Below the pieces are notes generated by a model, which worked only from the letters and a program-made list of their open reading frames with translations, did not search any database and was not told the DNA's origin. DNA of 32,000 nt from Candidatus Heimdallarchaeota archaeon (GTDB taxonomy: Archaea > Asgardarchaeota > Heimdallarchaeia > JABLTI01): positions 1 to 32,000 of the forward strand of contig JAUWKS010000014.1 in assembly GCA_030614005.1 (NCBI GenBank), in the 5' to 3' direction. Each line of letters opens with the position of its first letter. Position 1 is the stretch's first letter. The position numbers and the translations under genes were made by a program. Positions 14,629 through 25,564 of the stretch are shown here, in pieces.

Positions 14629-15498
14629 TTGAGAAAATCAAACGGTGGAGTAATCTGGCTAATTTTATCAGGAGCAGCGGTGGGTTTTGCTTTGTCCCTT
14701 ATTCTTGCTTCAATGTTATTTTTACAATATTTGATCCCTATCTTCATTCTCTTAGTAATCGGTGGTCTCATCTGTGCAAGAGTTATTGGAAGAAGTGGTG
14801 GAGAATTCTCCGAAGATACGAAAAACTATGCTCTTATCTTAGAGGGAATTATTTTCGGTATAGTCTTTGATTTGATGCGCTTTAGATATGATTGGTTAAT
14901 TAACATCTTCAAGTTTATCGCCCTTGGAACCTTTTTCATCCTATTTGCAGTTTTTTACAAGCGTAATCTTGACGAATATACAAATGATCATCTTGATGAT
15001 GGACCCTATATGGCAATAATGCGCCCTTCTATTCTTTACATTTTAGCTGGTTGTAATTTTGCTATTGCAATTAACTGCATTGTTGAAGCTTTTATGGGTT
15101 CTTCGTATTTCCTTGTATTGTTACCTTTAATGGTACTTTTTGGAGTTTTATTGATGATTTTCTCAAAAGCCGATTTCGATTTGTTGAGTACGGATTCTGG
15201 TGTTTGGAACCAGCTATTTGCAGGTATTATGTTAGGCTTTGCTTATGATTTAGCACTCTTCAGAGTTATCTTGTCGCAAGATATTGCCAAGTTATTCATT
15301 GTTTGTATGATGTTCCTTGTTACTGCTTTCGTAATTCGAAAGAAGATACCAACGAAGATGGGTATTGGTGGTGTTTCTCTTGATTTAGAGTCCACTAAAT
15401 CTCGTAAGAAAAAAACTACTTCTGCTCGCGAAATCTCTTTCGCTGAGAAAAAACCTCGCAGTAAATCATCAAAATCAACAAGTAAAAAGAGGAGATAA
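14629..15498 (+). CDS. Polytopic membrane protein of unknown function with Lys/Arg/Ser-rich C-terminal tail
   Basis: Roughly 8 hydrophobic segments; tail KSRKKKTTS...KKRR; TTG start. Confidence 0.75.
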   Translation: MRKSNGGVIWLILSGAAVGFALSLILASMLFLQYLIPIFILLVIGGLICARVIGRSGGEFSEDTKNYALILEGIIFGIVFDLMRFRYDWLINIFKFIALGTFFILFAVFYKRNLDEYTNDHLDDGPYMAIMRPSILYILAGCNFAIAINCIVEAFMGSSYFLVLLPLMVLFGVLLMIFSKADFDLLSTDSGVWNQLFAGIMLGFAYDLALFRVILSQDIAKLFIVCMMFLVTAFVIRKKIPTKMGIGGVSLDLESTKSRKKKTTSAREISFAEKKPRSKSSKSTSKKRR

Positions 15499-16914
15499 TT
15501 GTCAATGAGAAGAAACAGCTTGAAGTTTATCATTCTCTTTACCACTTTCTTGGTACCTTTTCTATTTGCTCCTCTTACAGTTGGTTATACTCAAGCCGCA
15601 CCAATCGATGAATATCCAAAATTTGGTTTTAGCTACATTAATGGTATAGCTGGTGCAACTGAATTGGAGGAACCCGGATATCAAAAAGCGGTTGAAATGG
15701 GTGCAACCATCGAACATCGGGAATATAGTTGGTCCTATATTGACTATTCTATTGAACGTGTATATGAATGGAAAAAACTATTCCTTAACAAATTTCCATC
15801 AATGAATGCATCCATAGCCATAGGTGTTATTAGTAATAATTTCAGTGTTCTAACGTCAAAATTCAATTTTACAAGATATACAACTATACCTACCCCTGAA
15901 TCTAATAATACTCGATTTAATGATCCTTTAGTTATAACTACACTCAAAAATTTCACTGACATTGTTCTTGAAGACATTGGTGGATTCAGTTATATCAGCT
16001 TCGGGAACGAAGTTAATGGGTTCTTTGAAACCTATTTTGATTATACAACTAAGACAATGACTAATACTGTTATGCTCGATGATTATGTTAATCTGACAGA
16101 GCAAATGTATGATTATGTTAAAGCGAAGTATCCTTCAGTAAAAGTAATGATGAGTTTTCGCAATCAAATTACTTCAGATCACCTTAATATTGCTGCAATA
16201 ATTGATCGCTTCAATGACTCTTGTGATATATACTCTATGGCTGGTCGAATTTTCACGAATGATTATGGTTTTCTTGAGAACCTCTCAAAGGATGAAGTAC
16301 TTGAACGCTTTACGAATTTCATTGATCTAACTGGCTCCAAGAAATTTGCTATAACAAATATCTATACTATCTCTGATAGCAGTGCAGGTGGATCTGAATT
16401 GTATCAAGCTAATTTCATTCGAACACTGTTTGAACTTGCAAACGACTATTCTGATAAAATGGAGTTCCTCTGTTGGTATCATATTTTTGATTTACCCCGT
16501 GGTTATCTTGGGATGATATTTAGTCCATTCCTTGAAGCTCAACGTTCTCTTGGTTTATTGACAGAATTTGGTGATTACAAGATGTCTTATTTCGCTTGGA
16601 TTGAAGAAATGCAAGCTCTTGGTCGAATACCTAACTATTATACTCCATGGAAGATTGCTCTTTATTCAATAACCTTAACGGCAATAGGAGGATTTTTTGT
16701 ATTCGCTTTTGTAAAGGAAGGTATTGACATCTACAAGACACAGCAACAAAAAGATGCAACCCCTGATCAAATTGATTTTGATAAAAAACCCAAGGAACCT
16801 TCCATAAAGAAGAAAAAAAAGAAGAAAGGCAAATCAAAGGAAACTATCGTCTTTGATGCAAGTTATTCCTATGATGATAGTAAAGAATCAGAAGCAGCTG
16901 AAGAAGAGAAGTAA
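15499..16914 (+). CDS. Secreted, C-terminally anchored glycoside hydrolase clan A-like TIM-barrel protein
   Basis: Signal peptide, SFGNEVN acid/base-type motif, SELYQANF, LCWYHIFD, LGLLT..G..K..Y, C-terminal TM helix and highly charged tail; starts directly after the preceding stop. Confidence 0.6.
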   Translation: MSMRRNSLKFIILFTTFLVPFLFAPLTVGYTQAAPIDEYPKFGFSYINGIAGATELEEPGYQKAVEMGATIEHREYSWSYIDYSIERVYEWKKLFLNKFPSMNASIAIGVISNNFSVLTSKFNFTRYTTIPTPESNNTRFNDPLVITTLKNFTDIVLEDIGGFSYISFGNEVNGFFETYFDYTTKTMTNTVMLDDYVNLTEQMYDYVKAKYPSVKVMMSFRNQITSDHLNIAAIIDRFNDSCDIYSMAGRIFTNDYGFLENLSKDEVLERFTNFIDLTGSKKFAITNIYTISDSSAGGSELYQANFIRTLFELANDYSDKMEFLCWYHIFDLPRGYLGMIFSPFLEAQRSLGLLTEFGDYKMSYFAWIEEMQALGRIPNYYTPWKIALYSITLTAIGGFFVFAFVKEGIDIYKTQQQKDATPDQIDFDKKPKEPSIKKKKKKKGKSKETIVFDASYSYDDSKESEAAEEEK

Positions 16915-16945
16915 TTTTTCCTCTTCATCAAATCTTTTTTATTTT

Positions 16946-17827
16946 TTATTCAGGAAACTCGGTTACTTTCTTCCGAAATTCCTTTTCAGGATAAATGTAT
17001 CCTTGTCGTGGTGGCATACTATTGTAAACTTTTTCAATATCAATAACACCACGTGATCCACTGATTCCTTGAAAAGTTCCTTTTACCAGTAAGGTTTCCA
17101 ATTCAAAATCCATTACAAAAACACCTACTTTTGCTTTCTCTGGAATTCTCTTCAAATCTTCTTTGAATTGAGATAGTGTGAATATAATCGTTTTATTTTC
17201 TATTGCACGTGCCTGAAAACAAGGAATAATAACTGGATAGTTGTCTTTTGGGTCTAAATAAGCGATGAATTTTGGAAAGATGGGTCCATTGAATAATTTC
17301 ATTCCAAATTTGGGCAAACGTTCTTCCAAATTACCTGTTTTATATTTTCTTTTTCCAAATAGATTAGCAACTATTCCTTTGATAATTCCAAATAAATTAA
17401 TGTCTCGAATAGCACTTGCTGCTTTTACTTTATTAAAATACGTTTTATACACTCGCATATAGACATTATATCTCATTAAATCAGTTTGATTAAAATCAAC
17501 AGCATCTTCTGCTTCTGTTGAACAGTAATCATAATCAGCTTTTATTTGTAAGAATTTGAATGGCATTTCAGCAGTCATAAATAGAATTCCTTGTTTAGGA
17601 TTAACTAGGATATTTTTCTTGCTAGATCCTTCTGTAAATTGCCCCCATTTTACTGTTTCTTCATTAACAGCTTTATTACTTGCAATCATAGTTATATGTG
17701 GATCTCCGTCCGAATCTATTGTTGCTACGAACTTTGCCATGATTTCTGGAAAAGTAAATTCTACTGCTTCTTGTGTTAGTTTTGGCATCCATTTCAAATT
17801 ATTTTTTTTCTGCTTCATAACTTTCAC
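16946..17827 (-). CDS. Tandem pyridoxamine 5'-phosphate oxidase-like (FMN-binding split barrel) protein
   Basis: Two similar halves: KFVATIDSDGDPHIT ... KNILVNPKQGILF and KFIAYLDPKDNYPVII ... KRIPEKAKVGVFV. Confidence 0.7.
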   Translation of the reverse strand: MKVMKQKKNNLKWMPKLTQEAVEFTFPEIMAKFVATIDSDGDPHITMIASNKAVNEETVKWGQFTEGSSKKNILVNPKQGILFMTAEMPFKFLQIKADYDYCSTEAEDAVDFNQTDLMRYNVYMRVYKTYFNKVKAASAIRDINLFGIIKGIVANLFGKRKYKTGNLEERLPKFGMKLFNGPIFPKFIAYLDPKDNYPVIIPCFQARAIENKTIIFTLSQFKEDLKRIPEKAKVGVFVMDFELETLLVKGTFQGISGSRGVIDIEKVYNSMPPRQGYIYPEKEFRKKVTEFPE

Positions 17828-17839
17828 CCAATAATTTCT

Positions 17840-18838
17840 TTATTGTTGATTATCTTTAGATTCACTTTGTGTAAGTCCTGACCACTGGACATTTTTTGCT
17901 CCTTCCTCAATTGCTACATCATAAAGGGATTCAATATCTTCTTTTTTCAATAATGGTATGTCTTGTAGAGACCACTGAATGTCCATTCTTTGATATTTGT
18001 CTGTAGCAAGATTATTGAAAGCTAATAAATCCCATCGTTCTATTTTATTCTTCAATTCATTTACAATGAATTTCGCAATTCCTCTTACATTTTCTTCCGT
18101 TGCTGTATATTGAGGGATAATTGGTGTTCGTATCCAAAGTTTTTTTCCATCCTCTCTTAACTTTTGAGCGAGCCAAATACAATTTTGTAGAATTGTTTCA
18201 TTTGGCACTCCAGTAAATACATTATGTTTTGCTGAATCTATTTCTTTCAAGTCATAAAGGAATAAATCTACAAATGGTAGTATTCTTTTGAGGTTCTTTA
18301 GAGAAGTATACCCACAAGTGTCAAAAGCAGTCATTAGACCTTTTTCTTTGCATTGCTTAAGAAATTCAACAACAAAATCAGTTTGCATTGTTGGCTCTCC
18401 TCCGGAAACAGTTACTCCCCCACCTGATTTCTCATAATATACACGATCTTTCTCTACTTCATGAAGCAAATCAGCAACAGACCATTTCAAGCCAAATATT
18501 TGCAAAGCTGTTGAAGGACATTCCTCTACACATTTTCCGCAAATCGAACATTTCTCTCTATCAATTTGTAACCCCTTATCATCGAATTTTAATGCGTTAT
18601 CTGGACATATTTCCACACAAGTTTTACATCCGATACATTTTATTTCAAACCATTGTATCCCTTGTTTAGTAGGGATTGATTCAGGATTATGGCACCAGTC
18701 ACATTTTAGTGGGCATCCTTTCAAGAATATCGATGTTCGTATTCCTGGTCCATCTTCTGTTGATAATTTTTGGATTTCAAGCACTAATCCTTTCAATGAT
18801 GTTTTCTCATCTATTGATGTAGTTGATAGAGTGTTCAC
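17840..18838 (-). CDS. Glycyl-radical enzyme activating enzyme (radical SAM, ferredoxin-insert type)
   Basis: DGPGIRTSIFLKGCPLKCDWCHNPES, two CxxCxxCxxxC motifs, GGVTVSGGEP, DLFLYDLKEID; AAGGAG upstream of the GTG start. Confidence 0.95.
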   Translation of the reverse strand: MNTLSTTSIDEKTSLKGLVLEIQKLSTEDGPGIRTSIFLKGCPLKCDWCHNPESIPTKQGIQWFEIKCIGCKTCVEICPDNALKFDDKGLQIDREKCSICGKCVEECPSTALQIFGLKWSVADLLHEVEKDRVYYEKSGGGVTVSGGEPTMQTDFVVEFLKQCKEKGLMTAFDTCGYTSLKNLKRILPFVDLFLYDLKEIDSAKHNVFTGVPNETILQNCIWLAQKLREDGKKLWIRTPIIPQYTATEENVRGIAKFIVNELKNKIERWDLLAFNNLATDKYQRMDIQWSLQDIPLLKKEDIESLYDVAIEEGAKNVQWSGLTQSESKDNQQ

Positions 18839-18866
18839 CTTGTAAACTCCTTAGACACTGGTATGC

Positions 18867-21389
18867 TTACATTTTGTGAGATTTTCTTGCAATAATTTCA
18901 TCTTGCAATTCTTTGCCAATAGAGGTAAAGTACGCGTTATACCCTGTTACTCTGACAAGTAGATTGCCATAGTTTTCCGGGTGTTGTTGTGCATCTATCA
19001 GCATCTCTGAATCAATAATATTTATTTGTAATGCTGTTCCACCATTTTCCACATATGCTTTAATATAAGCTTTGAATTTCTCTTTGTGTTCCTTGTTTCT
19101 TAGAATATTTGGATTAAATGTTATTGTGTGTGAAGCGCCATTTGGTAGAACATTGATATAGCTTCCATTATCTTCTTTTCCACCGAGGGCAATTCCGACA
19201 GAATTTGCTACTGCCGTTGGTCCTTTTGTATCTGCACCACTTGTTGGACAGATTGCATTCGATAAAAATGTCCCAGCATAGCGCCCATTGGGTGTTGCGA
19301 TAGTATAAAAAGCATCATTTCCAGCCCAGTAATTCCATGAAAGCATTCCTGGTCTAAATTGATAATCTGTTGGAGTTTTATATTTCCATGTTTCTTGTGC
19401 CCAAATATCCATTACTTCTTTTGCAAGAGTATCAGCTTCATCATCGTTGTTCCCGTATTTTGGAGCTTTATTTGCCAGTTTAGCACGTAGTATTTCATAC
19501 TCTTTCTTGCCTTTGAAATCGTTTTCTAGTGCTTCTTTGATCTGCTTGAAAGAATATTCTTTCTTATCGAATACATAATGTTTGATTGCAAGTAAGGAAT
19601 CAACTGTTGTAGCAAACCCAACTCCTTCTATAGTCATAAAAGCATATTTTGGTGGTCCTGCACGGATATCTACTCCTTTTTCTATACAATCATCAACAAG
19701 TATTGAGAGATAGGGTGTTGGCATATATTTTGCTCGAGTAAGTTCTGTTCGATTATAGTCTTCAACAGTGTACTTTATCATAAATTCAATTTGCTTTTTC
19801 CATGCAGCAAAAAACTCTTCCCAATTTTCAAACTTTTCCGGGTCGCCAGTATTAGGACCTAATTTTCTATTTGCTTTTGTTGGACGTTTAAAACCAGGCA
19901 TATTCTTTCCGCCCCATAGAACCAATTCAATGCTTTTAGCAAGATTTGGATTACAATTTACTGTGCCCGATCTATCATTCCCACACATAGTGTTTTCCAA
20001 ACACCCAACACATCCATAATCCCATACTTCATCTTCTGGGATTCCTTCTAGAACTAATCCTGCCATACTACGTTCATCGAAATTGAGAATAAATGGTGCA
20101 CCTTGTGAACGTGTAATCATGTCTAAAATGACCTCATATAATTTATCTGGAGAATTTTTGTGTAAACGGACATTTGGTTTTGGCTCCAATATTGGAGCCC
20201 ATTCATCAAAGACTTCGAGAATCATGTACGTTAAATCATTAGTTACATCTTCACCATTTGGTCCCAATCCAGAAAGAGTCATTAATTGACCAAAACCTGA
20301 TGTTATCCCTTGCATCCCGATTTTTATTTGAGCATCATAAGCTGTATTGCAGTGGAAAACAAACGAACTAAAGATATCTTTAGCAAAATCTCTATCAATG
20401 TTTTTCTCTTTGATTACGTCCTTTTCAAATAATTCTCCTAAGTACTGATCCAATCTACCAAAACTAGTTCCTGGTCCAGGATAGCTTTCTTCGGCCATTA
20501 TTAACATATGAGTTAACCATAACGATTGCATTCCTTGCCAGAATGTTTGCGCTGGTTCCCATGGAACAATTTCAAGATTTTGTGCCATTTGTTCTAATTC
20601 ATCTTGTCGTTGTTTAGAGTTTGATTCTTTAATTAATCTTCGACATTCCTCTGCATATTTCTTAGCTAGATTTCGAGGGATTTCCGCAGAAATCATCATC
20701 GCTCTAAGTTCTTTGCCTTTTGATCCATTTTTCTCTTTTTCAGTTAGAGATTCATACGTTTTCTTTGCTTTCCGGAAGACAAATTTGAATCCTTTTTCAA
20801 TAATTATTTTATAATCGGCTATCAAATGGCCCCCAGTTGCTCCTAGGTTTCCAAAACCATTTTTATGATATTTGAAGGCAGCATGTCGGTTTCGAAGGTT
20901 CTCCTTTTCAAATTGCACATATTCTTTTTCATTTAAGCATTTAGAAAGTTGAGTGTTGAATTGACCACCTGCAATAAGATCATTTGTTGAGATTATTTCT
21001 TGTGGGATATAATTTAGCATAACCTCTTCGAAGAATGTAGACCTTCTCTCTGGTAATGAAAGCTTCCAAAATCCTTCTGGAAGTTTTACATTTTTAGCCA
21101 TTAGTTCAATGGACATGTTATATAGTCCTTTAGTATTTTCACCTATGAAAGCGTAAGTGTCTGGAACAATATAGAAATCGCCCTCATTCCAGATTCGCTC
21201 TCCCCAAGATGCTCCTGTTGAAAAGACCATATATTGATTATTCCATTCACGATCATTTCCTTGAAAATAATAATCTCGAAGCCATTTTGCTCTTGAGGAT
21301 AGGTTATGTGGTTCTGCAACTTTAAATTTTGGACCTGTTACTGGTGTTTTACAACTAGCATTTGTTGGTGGTTTTTTAGATTCTGCCAT
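18867..21389 (-). CDS. Glycyl radical enzyme (PFL-like superfamily, non-canonical), substrate unknown
   Basis: C-terminal glycyl-radical motif NLLVRVTGYNAYF, Cys loop GCVGCLE, SFGRLDQYL, PNVRLH, YGNNDDEAD, TPNGR, KGPTAV; 840 aa. Confidence 0.93.
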   Translation of the reverse strand: MAESKKPPTNASCKTPVTGPKFKVAEPHNLSSRAKWLRDYYFQGNDREWNNQYMVFSTGASWGERIWNEGDFYIVPDTYAFIGENTKGLYNMSIELMAKNVKLPEGFWKLSLPERRSTFFEEVMLNYIPQEIISTNDLIAGGQFNTQLSKCLNEKEYVQFEKENLRNRHAAFKYHKNGFGNLGATGGHLIADYKIIIEKGFKFVFRKAKKTYESLTEKEKNGSKGKELRAMMISAEIPRNLAKKYAEECRRLIKESNSKQRQDELEQMAQNLEIVPWEPAQTFWQGMQSLWLTHMLIMAEESYPGPGTSFGRLDQYLGELFEKDVIKEKNIDRDFAKDIFSSFVFHCNTAYDAQIKIGMQGITSGFGQLMTLSGLGPNGEDVTNDLTYMILEVFDEWAPILEPKPNVRLHKNSPDKLYEVILDMITRSQGAPFILNFDERSMAGLVLEGIPEDEVWDYGCVGCLENTMCGNDRSGTVNCNPNLAKSIELVLWGGKNMPGFKRPTKANRKLGPNTGDPEKFENWEEFFAAWKKQIEFMIKYTVEDYNRTELTRAKYMPTPYLSILVDDCIEKGVDIRAGPPKYAFMTIEGVGFATTVDSLLAIKHYVFDKKEYSFKQIKEALENDFKGKKEYEILRAKLANKAPKYGNNDDEADTLAKEVMDIWAQETWKYKTPTDYQFRPGMLSWNYWAGNDAFYTIATPNGRYAGTFLSNAICPTSGADTKGPTAVANSVGIALGGKEDNGSYINVLPNGASHTITFNPNILRNKEHKEKFKAYIKAYVENGGTALQINIIDSEMLIDAQQHPENYGNLLVRVTGYNAYFTSIGKELQDEIIARKSHKM

Positions 21390-21432
21390 CTTGTGTTAAA
21401 TCCTTTACAATCAATTCTAAGTACAAGAAATA

Positions 21433-21452
21433 GCACCACATTTATCTGGTGC
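21433..21452. promoter_or_regulatory. Inverted repeat upstream of the GRE operon, candidate operator
   Basis: GCACCA-N8-TGGTGC; the spacer reads GATAAATG (TATA-like) on the minus strand, 44 nt upstream of the GRE ATG. Confidence 0.3.
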
Positions 21453-21535
21453 AATTTAATATTGTCGAAAAATAGATAGTTAGATACACATTATAATCTT
21501 TTGATTAAGTTATTAAGAAAAAAAAGGAAATGATA

Positions 21536-22261
21536 TTACCTTCCACCTAAACCAGGGAAGTAATATTTTTTACCTTCAGCGTAGCTGGCATCTACACGAG
21601 CTATACCAGTATCTCTCATTGCTTCTAATGCACGTTCACTTCTTTCTTGATTCCAGCCTGTTTTCATAATTAGCTCTTCTATTGAGATCCAACCTTTCCT
21701 GGTTGATAGGGCTAAGACTTCTTCTTGATCTTCAGAGAGATTCGCGGGAATAAATTCGACTAATTTTACGCCGCCTTTTAATTCTCTTACTTCAGGAATG
21801 ACTTTTGCATCAGATAGTTTCTCGATTGATGTTACAACATCTTTTACGGGGATTATTTTCCCAGGACGTCCTTTATTTACGAGGATAACTACTTCTCCTA
21901 AAGTCATTAGTCCTCCTGTATATTCTTGAACTTCTTTTGCTTTCTCAAGAATCTCAACACCAAGGCGCTCAAAGAAATCGCCTCCGCCTATCTTATCCCA
22001 GAAAGTAGCACTTTCTTTCCATTCATAGACTCCAAGTTCATCTGGCAATCCTAATTCTTGTCTCAGTTCCACTAATTTCTTGTAGGAATCTTCATTACCT
22101 GTTATATCTTTCTTCCATTTCTTTTCAAATTTCTTAAGACGACTTTGAAGTTCTCGTATGTTTTCGAGCATAATTTCTAAATCTTCGATCATTATTTCTG
22201 CTTCTTTAGCTTTGAAAGCTGATTTTATTCTAATCTTCTTTTCAATTTCTCTTAAACCCAT
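21536..22261 (-). CDS. vps22: ESCRT-II subunit Vps22/SNF8-like (EAP30 domain)
   Basis: FFERLGVEILE ... TGGLMTLGEV ... DVVTSIEKL and LSEDQEEVLALSTRKGWISIEELIMKTGWNQERSERALEAM..TG....D...YYFPGL align by eye with the two winged-helix domains of eukaryotic SNF8. Confidence 0.88.
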   Translation of the reverse strand: MGLREIEKKIRIKSAFKAKEAEIMIEDLEIMLENIRELQSRLKKFEKKWKKDITGNEDSYKKLVELRQELGLPDELGVYEWKESATFWDKIGGGDFFERLGVEILEKAKEVQEYTGGLMTLGEVVILVNKGRPGKIIPVKDVVTSIEKLSDAKVIPEVRELKGGVKLVEFIPANLSEDQEEVLALSTRKGWISIEELIMKTGWNQERSERALEAMRDTGIARVDASYAEGKKYYFPGLGGR

Positions 22262-22376
22262 AATGTTTCATTCCTTGGTATGTAGCTTAACTTTGGATAA
22301 TTACTCTATATAACCTTTCTATTTACGATTGAACTAGGTATTAATTGGTAAATAAAATTTTAAACGTTCTCTTATT

Positions 22377-23747
22377 ATGAAGATTAAGGTATTTGTAAGT
22401 TTAGTGGGTCTTGATGAAGTAATGAGCTCGACAAATAGTGCTAATGTTAATGTCCGCGAAGAAGTCATTACAATATTGAAGCAATTTGAAGATTCTTCAC
22501 AAACTTTACGTCAAATTATTCGACAACATCTTAGTGCTCACTCCTTTTCATTTCCTGTTGCAGCAAGAATTCAATCATTAGCTTTAGGTGTTATACAATA
22601 TAAGAATACTATCGATTTTATTCTTAACCGGAGCCGATTCAACATATCATTAAAGGAAATCCCAAAAATGGATTTACTTAGACTTCGATTAGCTCTTTTC
22701 GAAGGTCGTTGGCAAAAAATTTCCACTCAAATACTTGAATCTTTTTTAAAGGAAAAAAAATATCTTAAAATCTTGACAAAAGCGATTAATTTAGACCTCG
22801 TTTCTGCCGTTAAATCAATGAAGTCTGAAGAACAAAAAAGTATTCTCTATTCACATCCCACTTTTCTTGTCCACACACTCACAGAAAAATTAGGTGAAAA
22901 GGAAACAATTTCTTTAATGAAGAAGAATAATAGTTCGTTTACATCATATCTTCGAATAAATCAACTAATATCAAATCCAAATGAAATTCTCTCATCTTTA
23001 ATTGAAAAGAAGATAATTTTAGAGCAAGATAAAGATCTTCCATTTCTCTATGTTATCAAAGATGGTATGAAAGCTTTAATTGATACTAATGCATTCAAAA
23101 CTGGAAAAATATTCATTCAAGACAAAGCAAGTATATTGGCTGTCAAAACACTCGATCCACAACCTGGTGATTTCATTTGGGATGCTTGCGCTGCACCTGG
23201 AATGAAAACACATCTAATCTGGGAATTTATGAAAGGTGAAGGCACTCTAATTGCAAGTGATATACATTATCAACGATTACAAAGCGCACAAAAACGCTTT
23301 CTTAGCTATGGCATCAATCAAGTCGAATGGATTCATACTGATGCAGCAAATGCTTCTATCCCAAATGCTAAAAAAATCCTCATAGATGCTCCTTGTACAT
23401 CTACTGGAATTATTCAAAGCCACCCTTCCTATAAATGGCGTTTGAATAAAAAATGGCTCTTCTCTATTATGACTATTCAAAATAAAATTTTAGATGGGAT
23501 AATTTCTAAATATTTAGATAAGCCTGGTACAGAGATTCTCTATTCTACTTGTTCAGTTTTACCTCACGAGGGTGAAAATCAAATTGATTCCGTTTTAGAT
23601 CGTTATAATGTTGAACTTATGAAAGGACCAAATTTTGGGCAGACAGGATATCCAAATTTCAAATGTTCTAAAGAAGTTCGAAGGTTATTCCCACATACAG
23701 ATAATACAAATGGTTTTTTCATTGCTCATCTAAAAATTAGTGAATAA
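22377..23747 (+). CDS. RsmB/NOL1/NOP2/Sun family RNA m5C methyltransferase with NusB-like N-terminal region
   Basis: IQDKAS, WDACAAPGMKT, LIDAPCTSTG, YSTCSVLPHEGE, TNGFFIAHL; N-terminal GVIQYKNTIDFIL ... LRLALFE. Confidence 0.92.
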   Translation: MKIKVFVSLVGLDEVMSSTNSANVNVREEVITILKQFEDSSQTLRQIIRQHLSAHSFSFPVAARIQSLALGVIQYKNTIDFILNRSRFNISLKEIPKMDLLRLRLALFEGRWQKISTQILESFLKEKKYLKILTKAINLDLVSAVKSMKSEEQKSILYSHPTFLVHTLTEKLGEKETISLMKKNNSSFTSYLRINQLISNPNEILSSLIEKKIILEQDKDLPFLYVIKDGMKALIDTNAFKTGKIFIQDKASILAVKTLDPQPGDFIWDACAAPGMKTHLIWEFMKGEGTLIASDIHYQRLQSAQKRFLSYGINQVEWIHTDAANASIPNAKKILIDAPCTSTGIIQSHPSYKWRLNKKWLFSIMTIQNKILDGIISKYLDKPGTEILYSTCSVLPHEGENQIDSVLDRYNVELMKGPNFGQTGYPNFKCSKEVRRLFPHTDNTNGFFIAHLKISE

Positions 23748-23761
23748 AAAGAAATGAATGA

Positions 23762-23787
23762 AGAAAAGATTTTACTTAATCTTTTCT
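23762..23787. terminator. Hairpin between convergent m5C methyltransferase and 100-aa ORF
   Basis: AGAAAAGATT-TTACTT-AATCTTTTCT perfect 10-bp stem touching the stop of 23786..24088(-). Confidence 0.55.
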
Positions 23788-24088
23788 AAATCGGTGGTTG
23801 CTTGTAATATTTTCTCAACCATTGGTAGATTTTTTCTCGAAGTTTGTTTTCATCTTTATTTTCAAGAGGAAGAGCTTTTTTGTCTATGTAAGTATTATAG
23901 AGGTTTTTCAACACTCCTCGAATTTGCCCAGACAATTGATGCCTCTTTCCAAAAGTCTTCTCAGCTTCAATCAATGCATTATTTAGTTCTTCTAGAACAA
24001 AATCAGAATCTAGGGAAATCTCAAGATAATTTAATATTTCTCGAAAGTGCTTGTATAGATTTCTATAAGCTACTGGATTTCCGCGCAT
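23786..24088 (-). CDS. Hypothetical all-helical protein (100 aa) downstream of vps28
   Basis: AGGAG upstream of the ATG, amphipathic helical periodicity, hairpin at its stop; co-oriented with the ESCRT-I genes. Confidence 0.7.
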   Translation of the reverse strand: MRGNPVAYRNLYKHFREILNYLEISLDSDFVLEELNNALIEAEKTFGKRHQLSGQIRGVLKNLYNTYIDKKALPLENKDENKLREKIYQWLRKYYKQPPI

Positions 24089-24156
24089 GATATTTCTTTT
24101 CTCCTAATTGTTCTGATTTTATTAAAAATATTGGAAAGGGCAATTGCCTTGATTTT

Positions 24157-24798
24157 CTAATCACCTCGTAGTGATCTTCTGAAACTGTTCAACCATCTAA
24201 CGGCTTCAAATTCTAATCGTTTGATTAGACCATCTTCAAGCACCTCATCAGGAGGCTTTGCTTCTAACATTTCTTTCCAATTGTTGATTTCTTTGACAAC
24301 ATCTGATTTAGGTCCAAAACCTGGATAAGCTTTCAATATAGCTTCCATATCATCAAGATTTGGTACGATAAGGTCAATTCGAGCTACACTTCGTAAGCGA
24401 AGTAAATCAATCAATTCAATTGCTCCAGCTACGAAATCAGCTGTTTTTGCTGGGAGATTTTTCATATGTTGGAAGGGCATTGCTACCGTTTCAACATTTT
24501 CTCCTCCAATTGGAATGGGGGCTACTCCTTCAGCAAATCGAAGTTTTTCAGCACCATAGGGATATTTCTGAGCAATTGATTCTCTATCAAGGAACCCATC
24601 AAGATTGAACCCTAATTTTTGCAATTTAAAGCGTGCTTTAAATGCATCTCTAATTAAAGAGCGTAGCTGACGGCGATACATACCTGGATCGAGTATCCCA
24701 TCTGCAAAACTTTGGCTTAAATTATCGATAGTTGCTATACATGAGAATAGCTCTGCTTCAAGTTCAAACTGGGATTTATTTTTTGACGAATAAGACAT
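24157..24798 (-). CDS. vps28: ESCRT-I subunit Vps28-like
   Basis: AELFSCIATIDNLSQSFADGILDPGMY (N-terminal SB hairpin) and ADFVAGAIELIDLLRL ... IVPNLDDM ... WKEML ... DEVLED ... LEFEAVRWLNSF parallel human VPS28 over the full length. Confidence 0.9.
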   Translation of the reverse strand: MSYSSKNKSQFELEAELFSCIATIDNLSQSFADGILDPGMYRRQLRSLIRDAFKARFKLQKLGFNLDGFLDRESIAQKYPYGAEKLRFAEGVAPIPIGGENVETVAMPFQHMKNLPAKTADFVAGAIELIDLLRLRSVARIDLIVPNLDDMEAILKAYPGFGPKSDVVKEINNWKEMLEAKPPDEVLEDGLIKRLEFEAVRWLNSFRRSLRGD

Positions 24799-24811
24799 TT
24801 TTCTTTACCTC

Positions 24812-25564
24812 TTATGATTGCTCCAATTTTTTGCTAGTTATATACATCTCTTTTGTATACCTTCTATAGAGTTTAGAGAAATCTACTGGACTTATTTCTC
24901 CATCTTTAAATTTCTCATCAAGTGTTGATAATAAGTCAGCCAGAGCTACACTTTGTGCTTGTAGCAATATCTTCTCACTCTGTCTACTATCTGAAGGCAA
25001 CAATACATCGAGATTTTCAATTTTGGAAATCTTTTCATCTGAACCTTTTACTACTTCTGCACGAAGTTTTCGTATTTCATCATCTTTCTTACGAATCTTT
25101 TTCTGAAGTTCAGATATTGTTTCATTGATATCCTCGACTTTTCTCCGGGTTGGTGTAGCTACCGTTTCCCGAGTTTGTACCGATGCTTTTTGCCTGGTAA
25201 CTTTACCAGAAGTGATTTTTGGTGGTACTTTCTCGAATAACACCTCTAATGCTTTTATTACCTGGTACACATGCTTATCAGGTTTCCAGTCATGAGTTAT
25301 TTGTAATAATACATTTCCATCTTTTTCGACATTTGGATGAACGATGCTCTTATTTTTAATAATCACGCGTGGTGGGTATATTGGGAATTTTAAGGGAACT
25401 AATACTTCAACAGGAATTTTGGTTTTTCCTTCCGGAGTATTTATTTCAATAGCCCCTTGCCATTTATTCAACCCATCCCCGACTGGGGCAAAACCTTTAG
25501 CATAATTAAACATGAGCTGCATTTCTCGGGCCAATGCTAATTCATTAACTTGATTTTTCGACAA
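24812..25564 (-). CDS. vps23: ESCRT-I subunit Vps23/TSG101-Vps37-like: UEV domain, coiled coil and steadiness box
   Basis: IPVEVLVPLKFPIYPPRV ... HPNVEKDGNVLLQITHDW (E2 fold, Leu at the catalytic Cys position), heptad stretch INETISELQKKIRKKDDEIRKLRAE, C-terminal LADLLSTLDEKFKDGEISPVDF; TTG start with GGAG upstream. Confidence 0.88.
   Translation of the reverse strand: MSKNQVNELALAREMQLMFNYAKGFAPVGDGLNKWQGAIEINTPEGKTKIPVEVLVPLKFPIYPPRVIIKNKSIVHPNVEKDGNVLLQITHDWKPDKHVYQVIKALEVLFEKVPPKITSGKVTRQKASVQTRETVATPTRRKVEDINETISELQKKIRKKDDEIRKLRAEVVKGSDEKISKIENLDVLLPSDSRQSEKILLQAQSVALADLLSTLDEKFKDGEISPVDFSKLYRRYTKEMYITSKKLEQS

Follow-up and report, generated by a model that had tools for sequence, protein, structure and literature searches.

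We examined a 32,000-nucleotide (nt) stretch of DNA from Candidatus Heimdallarchaeota archaeon (GenBank assembly GCA_030614005.1, contig JAUWKS010000014.1, positions 1 to 32,000; here called the window) and identified three co-oriented genes that very probably constitute a single operon encoding a glycyl radical enzyme (GRE) system of a distinct, uncharacterized clade. The genes encode the GRE itself (open reading frame [ORF] at 18867 to 21389; 840 amino acids [aa]), a radical S-adenosylmethionine (SAM) GRE activase (17840 to 18838; 332 aa), and a tandem split-barrel protein of the PNPOx-like type, here called SB (16946 to 17827; 293 aa). All three lie on the minus strand, as do their features given below, and they are separated by gaps of 28 nt and then 12 nt. 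In archaea and bacteria alike, the distribution and neighborhood of the SB gene mark it as an obligate genomic partner of the GRE clade. The window has genes of the endosomal sorting complexes required for transport (ESCRT-I and ESCRT-II), and close relatives bear Asgard names, which identifies the host as an Asgard archaeon. No microcompartment shell, small-subunit, or transporter gene adjoins the trio in the window, and the MFS and ABC genes nearest to it lie over 4 kb off. A preliminary description of this DNA had reported three co-oriented genes with these gaps and no adjacent microcompartment, transporter, or small-subunit gene, and the ORF coordinates and gene content of the window agree with it.

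The GRE matched the Pfam families PFL-like (PF02901; 2e-122) and Gly_radical (PF01228; 6.6e-23). The predicted thiyl residue is Cys463 (codon at 20001 to 20003) in the loop V-G-C-L-E-N-T, which aligns to Cys433 of glycerol dehydratase (1r8w) and to the G-C-V-E loop of HypD, and Glu465 (19995 to 19997) aligns to Glu435 of the same dehydratase. The predicted radical residue, Gly816 (18942 to 18944), lies in R-V-T-G-Y-N-A-Y-F, which aligns to the RVAGY glycyl loop of HypD, glycerol dehydratase, and CutC, and His188 (20826 to 20828) lies in a G-H-L-I segment that aligns to G163-H164 of glycerol dehydratase. V461, G462, C463, E465, N466, T467, G187, and H188 are invariant in 47 members of the GRE clade, and R813, T815, G816, Y817, and N818 are invariant across clade members as well. 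The features that define the superfamily (PFL-like barrel, RVxG glycyl motif, thiyl Cys loop, and co-encoded activase) are all present, as is the single Cys with a Glu at +2 that marks 1,2-eliminases (G-C463-L-E465). With Gly816 and His188, these two residues make up the catalytic complement of GRE 1,2-eliminases, and the operon encodes everything required for activation and for hydrogen abstraction by a thiyl radical. The motifs that identify the clade, GH[LI]IP, SYPG[PA]G.S.GR, VGCLENT..G.DRSGTV, LSWNY, and RVTGYNA, together with an adjoining tandem SB gene, are also found here. We considered the Cys-rich loop around the active site (C460, C469, and C479; window 19950 to 20015) as a disulfide or metal site and rejected it: only Cys463 is conserved in the clade, where positions 469 and 479 are mostly Gln and Val, respectively.

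We placed the GRE using NCBIfam cutoffs and pairwise alignments to PDB entries. Its best curated score, 432.8 bits to the PFL2-3 subfamily model TIGR01774, fell below the cutoff of 678.2. It also fell below the cutoffs of the equivalog models for HypD (NF043068; 396.4 versus 1100 bits) and CutC (322.6 versus 1050) and below those for HpsG (366.5 versus 1000), HpfG (361.9 versus 1000), indoleacetate decarboxylase (262.9 versus 1100), 4-hydroxyphenylacetate decarboxylase (HPAD; 188.7 versus 1150), and the pyruvate formate-lyase (PFL) equivalog TIGR01255 (95.2 versus 994.2). The PDB matches were nearly equal for HypD (314 bits), glycerol dehydratase (309 bits, over residues 186 to 840), 9rco (293 bits), Archaeoglobus PFL2 (286 bits), and CutC (281 bits), with propanediol dehydratase and IslA at a similar distance, and far weaker for MasD (202 bits), the benzylsuccinate synthase TutD (143 bits), HPAD (126 bits), and PFL (63 bits, with the Escherichia coli enzyme aligned only to the C-terminal 200 residues). 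The same genome encodes a second GRE on contig 75 (14163 to 16514, plus strand), a bona fide HypD that scored 1330.6 bits against the NF043068 cutoff of 1100 and has the G-T-S-G-C-V-E-T-G and W-D motifs and its own upstream activase. That this protein passes its cutoff indicates that the family models are valid in this genome. In a GRE tree of limited sampling, rooted on the contig-75 HypD, the SB-linked GREs formed a clade against HypD and other GREs (support, 0.945), and the Asgard subfamily of the window GRE was sister to the sampled bacterial clade (support, 1.0). The tree hints that the GRE clade has moved between domains, with sampling and rooting too limited to give the direction. We are highly confident that the GRE belongs to an uncharacterized clade with an obligate SB partner.

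The three genes are linked among Asgard archaea. A hand comparison of two phylum-wide searches covering 399 Asgard genomes gave 165 with both the clade GRE and SB, 13 with SB only, 17 with the clade GRE only, and 204 with neither, and the discordant genomes are mostly fragmented assemblies. Related genomes in this tally are not independent, but the pattern was seen across at least 12 GTDB families. The activase gene, the GRE gene, or both lay within 1.5 kb of SB in 26 of 29 Asgard loci, and all three genes were present in 19 of 21 Asgard loci of 20 kb, with no other neighbor conserved throughout. Those 21 loci include a distant subfamily in which the GREs are about 800 aa long and SB is 21 to 30% identical. 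Across Asgard genomes, the GRE orthologues are 62 to 80% identical. The trio is also adjacent in the cultured archaeon Prometheoarchaeum syntrophicum MK-D1, where SB is identical to DSAG12_02702. GRE-activase-SB was the commonest gene order; GRE-SB-x-activase and SB with the GRE alone were also seen. Where the activase gene is displaced or absent, SB remains beside the GRE (loci L013, L018, L019, L021, L022, L036, L045, L046, and L059). One single-contig Asgard genome (L038; G186:C1:1170200-1190199) carries SB with a short activase ORF of 262 aa and no clade GRE either alongside or genome-wide at E values of ≤1e-150; this locus may be a decaying module.

The trio extends well beyond Asgard archaea. 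Distant SB relatives adjoin a GRE, usually with an activase, in all five informative contexts, and a scan of one genome per species found a relative encoded in at least 590 species genomes, among them Syntrophales, Smithellaceae, Desulfatibacillum alkenivorans DSM 16219, Desulfobacterota, Myxococcota, Spirochaetota, Binatia, and Gemmatimonadota, as well as Asgard lineages with the cultured MK-D1. The SB profile recovered 346 representative clusters from 1.8 billion proteins, mostly full-length two-domain forms. The adjoining bacterial GREs are 50 to 56% identical to the window GRE (80 loci), and an alignment of 47 Asgard and bacterial GREs has more than 130 invariant columns, which argues for one substrate throughout the clade. 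The proposal that this is a candidate new GRE class in an Asgard archaeon therefore stands as far as an uncharacterized clade is concerned but not as an Asgard-restricted one, because the clade is widespread in anaerobic bacteria. The co-occurrence of the SB gene with the GRE, which the same proposal presupposed, is conserved across Asgard families and in bacteria.

The activase scored 330.7 bits against TIGR02494 (cutoff, 174.35) and fell below the cutoffs of all substrate-specific activase equivalogs. It has a CxxxCxxC radical-SAM motif (C42, C46, and C49; 18692 to 18715), read from G-C-P-L-K-C-D-W-C-H, and a ferredoxin-like insert with two CxxCxxCxxxCP motifs (residues 63 to 113; 18500 to 18652) that Fer4 matched in two stretches and Fer4_7 matched at residues 67 to 111. 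These features bear out its earlier description as a long activase with a two-cluster insert.

We modeled SB with AlphaFold using an alignment of 36 homologues. The full-length model had a mean predicted local distance difference test score (pLDDT) of 87.4 and a predicted template modeling score of 0.85. The N-terminal split barrel comprises residues 14 to 150 (17378 to 17788) and holds most of the invariant residues, including the F-T-E-G-S-S-K-K-N...N-P-K-Q-G segment matched by the Pfam family PNPOx_N. Residues 7 to 144 resembled Swol_0183 (3in6; Z score, 14.8), HupZ (14.6), 2htd (13.9), and an F420 reductase (13.6). The C-terminal, more degenerate split barrel comprises residues 168 to 282 (16982 to 17326). 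When the C-terminal half was folded alone (pLDDT, 88.8), it found the same neighbors as the N-terminal half (HupZ, 12.3; 2htd, 12.0; 3in6, 11.4), and the two halves aligned in register (hhalign E value, 7.9e-4). The Desulfovibrio flavin mononucleotide (FMN)-binding protein was a further structural neighbor (Z score, 12.3 for the N-terminal half and 10.2 for the C-terminal half). The tandem split barrel of the preliminary description is thus borne out, since both halves model as FMN-binding split barrels. SB shares the fold of its halves with the split-barrel homodimers (COG3576 protein 2htd, Swol_0183, HupZ, the Desulfovibrio FMN-binding protein, and the F420 and FMN FDOR reductases; Z scores of 14.8 to 11.4 over 100 to 135 residues) but differs from them in having two barrels in one chain, unequal conservation, and an identity of only 8 to 22%. 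To our knowledge, none of these homodimers has been linked to a GRE. A C-terminal tail follows (residues 283 to 293; 16949 to 16981), in which K287 and F291 are invariant among the Asgard members, although the final 20 residues were modeled with low confidence (pLDDT, 54 to 62). The tail may act as a docking motif. The likelier start of SB is the ATG at 17818 (residue 4), not the GTG at 17827, because GGTGA lies just upstream and the database form has 290 aa; with this start, 21 nt would separate the activase and SB genes.

It is plausible that SB binds a flavin, and the conserved F-T-E-G-S-S-K-K...N-P-K-Q-G segment hints at a phosphate site. SB is a covalent pseudo-dimer of the FMN-binding fold. 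It would carry one flavin, in its conserved N-terminal barrel, and would serve the GRE, not the activase, by taking part in a redox step on the product or an intermediate. We tentatively favor this flavin-dependent redox partnership with the GRE, although we rate it as somewhat short of probable. It is favored over the alternatives of an activase donor and a cofactor-free subunit because SB stays with the GRE and its N-terminal barrel resembles a ligand site.

Several points weigh against the overall interpretation of the trio given here. The match to PNPOx_N covers only the N-terminal half (residues 18 to 102) and reached 24.9 bits, below the gathering threshold of 28.1. HupZ, a nearest structural neighbor, is not a flavoprotein, which weakens the case for a bound flavin. 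A 4-nt overlap between the activase and SB genes is frequent in bacteria, and a partnership of SB with the activase would fit this arrangement as well as one with the GRE. The recurrent bacterial neighbors vary by lineage (acyl-CoA synthetase in 9 loci, PlsC-type acyltransferase in 5, pyrroline-5-carboxylate [P5C] reductase a few genes off in 6, and housekeeping genes), with none of them universal, and no conserved transporter, reductase partner, or downstream enzyme was found among the neighbors of the trio. The trio is dispensable, having been deleted in two sister genomes. The substrate proposed below is a guess from residues in pairwise alignments and not from a ligand-bound structure, and for every member the proposed chemistry is read from sequence and models.

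SB could instead be a dedicated electron donor of the activase that reduces its auxiliary and radical-SAM clusters, a role that the preliminary description had put forward as one of two options. Flavodoxin is the electron source for the E. coli PFL activase, and the small FMN-binding protein of Desulfovibrio is thought to be an electron carrier, so the presence of the latter among the structural neighbors of SB is consistent with such a role, as are the common GRE-activase-SB order and the 4-nt overlap in bacteria. However, when the genes are reordered, SB keeps to the GRE while the activase gene moves or is absent from the locus. We know of no other GRE family with the same activase type that requires a dedicated donor. 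A search of longer SB forms found none fused to an activase or another redox domain, which is weak evidence against a donor role. We consider this explanation unlikely.

We hold it to be equally unlikely that SB serves the GRE as a cofactor-free subunit with a structural or protective role, much like the small subunits of benzylsuccinate synthase (BSS) or HPAD, and not as a redox enzyme. The tight genomic linkage of SB to the GRE would be expected of a subunit, and SB diverges faster than the GRE (about 21 to 36% identity between Asgard and bacterial members versus 52 to 56% for the GRE). The subthreshold PNPOx_N score and the lack of flavin in HupZ, the best structural neighbor, also fit a cofactor-free protein, and the conserved but low-confidence C-terminal tail is what a docking peptide might look like. 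Against this, the PNPOx_N-matching segment and the majority of the invariant residues both fall in the N-terminal barrel, a pattern that a ligand site would produce. The multisubunit GREs (BSS, alpha-beta-gamma; HPAD, large plus small) resemble the trio in having an extra co-encoded protein besides the activase, but their extra subunits are small Fe-S proteins rather than a 290-aa tandem FMN-type barrel, and their catalytic subunits match the window GRE at only 143 and 126 bits. Cofolding of the GRE (truncated to residues 123 to 840) with SB (residues 12 to 293), using 47-row alignments, gave a score of 0.00 twice; the runs were made without controls and have no bearing either way on binding.

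The preliminary description knew of no characterized GRE class with a PNPOx-like partner, and our literature search, which left most subscription journals outside its reach, likewise found no paper on a GRE with a split-barrel partner; LssP is the only parallel. This expressed PNPOx-like protein is encoded in the limonenylsuccinate synthase operon, and the authors left its role unexplained (PMC12583861). LssP is similar to SB in being a PNPOx-type protein in a GRE operon, although that operon encodes a fumarate-adding GRE with beta and gamma subunits, and we liken LssP to SB by protein type. LssP may represent another instance of a split-barrel protein that travels with a GRE.

As for the GRE, we consider it very unlikely that it is a divergent archaeal member of a known eliminase class (HypD, glycerol or propanediol dehydratase, CutC, IslA, HpsG or HpfG, or PflD/YbiW). 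The GRE does have the Cys-x-Glu loop and His188, HypD and glycerol dehydratase are its top PDB matches, and some orthologue entries are automatically named trans-4-hydroxy-L-proline dehydratase. However, the equivalog scores are about one-third of the cutoffs, a true HypD is encoded elsewhere in the genome, and the clade stands apart from HypD in the tree. The glycerol dehydratase of Clostridium butyricum and its activase (DhaB1/DhaB2; 1r8w and 1r9d) and the GRE propanediol dehydratase resemble the trio in the ten-stranded PFL-like barrel, the glycyl loop, the Cys with Glu at +2, His164, and the two-cluster activase, and in pairwise alignment the window GRE retains H164, C433, and E435 of glycerol dehydratase. 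The trio differs in its score below the PFL2-3 cutoff, in its obligate SB gene, in the lack of adjoining alcohol dehydrogenase or microcompartment genes, and in five residues of glycerol dehydratase that are lost: H281 is replaced by P306, S282 by G307, D447 by V477, and Y640 by Leu, and Y339 falls in a 2-residue deletion. We take Asp447 to be the general acid and Ser282, His281, Tyr339, and Tyr640 to be glycerol-binding residues. No glycerol genes were found among the recurrent neighbors of about 110 loci. HypD (6vxc and 6vxe), the best PDB match, shares the G-C-x-E loop and has an Arg where the window GRE has R679, but the GRE reached only 396 of the 1100 bits of NF043068, and Asp278 of HypD, which presumably binds the substrate amine, is replaced by G305. 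The usual partner of HypD is P5C reductase and not a split-barrel protein. The residue sets of both the diol dehydratases and HypD are therefore broken in this GRE. With all equivalog cutoffs missed and these residues replaced, the GRE does not fall in a characterized cluster with conserved substrate residues, an outcome that the preliminary description had named as one that would refute its proposal.

PFL chemistry needs an adjacent Cys-Cys pair, and a Glu at Cys+2 is an eliminase feature. A 2-oxoacid (pyruvate) formate-lyase or an alkyl- or benzylsuccinate synthase (Ass/Bss) is scarcely credible here, even though orthologues are automatically annotated as "pyruvate formate lyase family," MK-D1 has been credited with 2-oxoacid-formate lyases (Imachi et al. 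2020; PMC7015854), and single-Cys Asgard GREs have been named Ass/Bss (Zhang et al. 2021; PMC8163825), because the loop is Gly462-Cys463 without a Cys-Cys pair and has a Glu at Cys+2, TIGR01255 is far below its cutoff, TutD (143 bits) and MasD (202 bits) trail HypD (314 bits), the 28- and 12-nt gaps and the flanks have neither room nor a small ORF for beta and gamma subunits, and GRE, activase, and SB alone make up the unit conserved in 21 loci. Both published labels are thus contradicted, on sequence grounds, by the Gly-Cys-x-Glu loop, the family scores, and the absent small subunits.

We infer that the GRE is a 1,2-eliminase-type enzyme that would act on a carbon with a hydroxyl or amino group. 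In the proposed mechanism, the activase would generate the radical on Gly816, which would then be passed to Cys463. The Cys463 thiyl radical would take a hydrogen from the substrate carbon bearing the hydroxyl (or amino) group, Glu465 and His188 would deprotonate this group, and the neighboring leaving group would be expelled. Diol dehydratases use an Asp to protonate the leaving hydroxyl; in the GRE clade, this position is an invariant Val (V477), and the invariant pocket residues are D472-R473-S474, R679, and S684-W685-N686-Y687. The Asp-to-Val change together with these residues suggests a small polar, likely anionic substrate whose leaving group is not a simple hydroxyl. The favored candidates are hydroxy compounds, for instance a hydroxy acid or an alcohol that is phosphorylated or sulfonated, and the residue pattern favors a leaving group better than hydroxyl. 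A regulator of the FCD/GntR type lies directly upstream and co-oriented in 15 bacterial loci. Such regulators usually sense carboxylates, which fits an anionic substrate. A bolder version of the SB-GRE redox partnership is that SB is a flavin-bearing catalytic partner that would exchange electrons with the substrate radical or product, for a net redox transformation new to GREs, for example, one that reductively strips a common small metabolite of a hydroxyl, phosphate, or amino group. We regard this version as rather doubtful. If it were true, the reaction would be a widespread, unrecognized step of anaerobic carbon turnover in sediments, including in cultured Asgard archaea.

GREs, which are sensitive to oxygen, carry out some of the hardest anaerobic reactions, and newly assigned clades have revealed pathways for choline, hydroxyproline, isethionate, sulfoquinovose products, and anhydro-sugars. 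The clade reported here is large and highly conserved, with a type of partner not described for any GRE, and the trio would mark an undescribed anaerobic reaction and not a PFL or a hydrocarbon-activating enzyme. Asgard metabolic models that count such genes as 2-oxoacid formate-lyases or as alkane- or aromatic-activating succinate synthases would be affected, as would the physiology inferred for the archaeal relatives of eukaryotes. The trio is directly testable, since it occurs in the cultured organisms MK-D1 and D. alkenivorans DSM 16219.

The GRE operon has a probable promoter of its own in the region upstream of the GRE gene (21390 to 21535, minus strand), where a T-tract just past the vps22 stop codon is followed by AT-rich, TATA-like stretches. 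The trio lies between a 471-aa gene and vps22, both in the window and in a genome of the same genus (G089). Two closer relatives, G087 and G081, whose flanks have 84 to 88% DNA identity, carry independent deletions at this site (compared over window 16941 to 21508). G087 (L146) lacks the equivalent of window 17087 to 21403 and keeps the last 47 SB codons, and G081 (L148) keeps only remnants, a 110-nt piece of SB (17216 to 17325) and a 50-nt piece of the GRE gene (21284 to 21333). At least five other genomes of the genus lack the trio here and have its two flanking genes side by side. We rejected a recent insertion of the trio in this genus, since SB and GRE fragments lie at the same site in the two sister genomes. 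The comparison of these sites indicates that the trio is lost recurrently in the genus, and the deletion scars show it to be accessory. The sequencing runs that matched the locus were DNA, from marine-sediment and cold-seep metagenomes, with no RNA run among those listed.

The genes around the operon are of other kinds. Upstream of the GRE gene, the window carries a partial ESCRT-I/II set (21536 to 25564) of EAP30/Vps22, Vps28, and a UEV-Vps23-like gene, broken up by a methyltransferase gene of the RsmB/NOL1 type on the opposite strand. On the other side, genes of 289 and 471 aa (14629 to 16914, plus strand) are convergent with the operon, gave no Pfam match, and keep their position across the genus with or without the trio. 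In several Desulfobacterota loci (L083, L108, L129, and L134), a second, dissimilar GRE (about 30 to 32% identical, about 790 to 830 aa) lies directly beside the trio, in L108 with its own activase. In one bacterial context (marine contigs L055 and L056), genes for a family III CoA-transferase and a molybdopterin oxidoreductase precede the trio, multiheme cytochrome and NrfD genes lie near it, and the activase and SB genes overlap by 4 nt.

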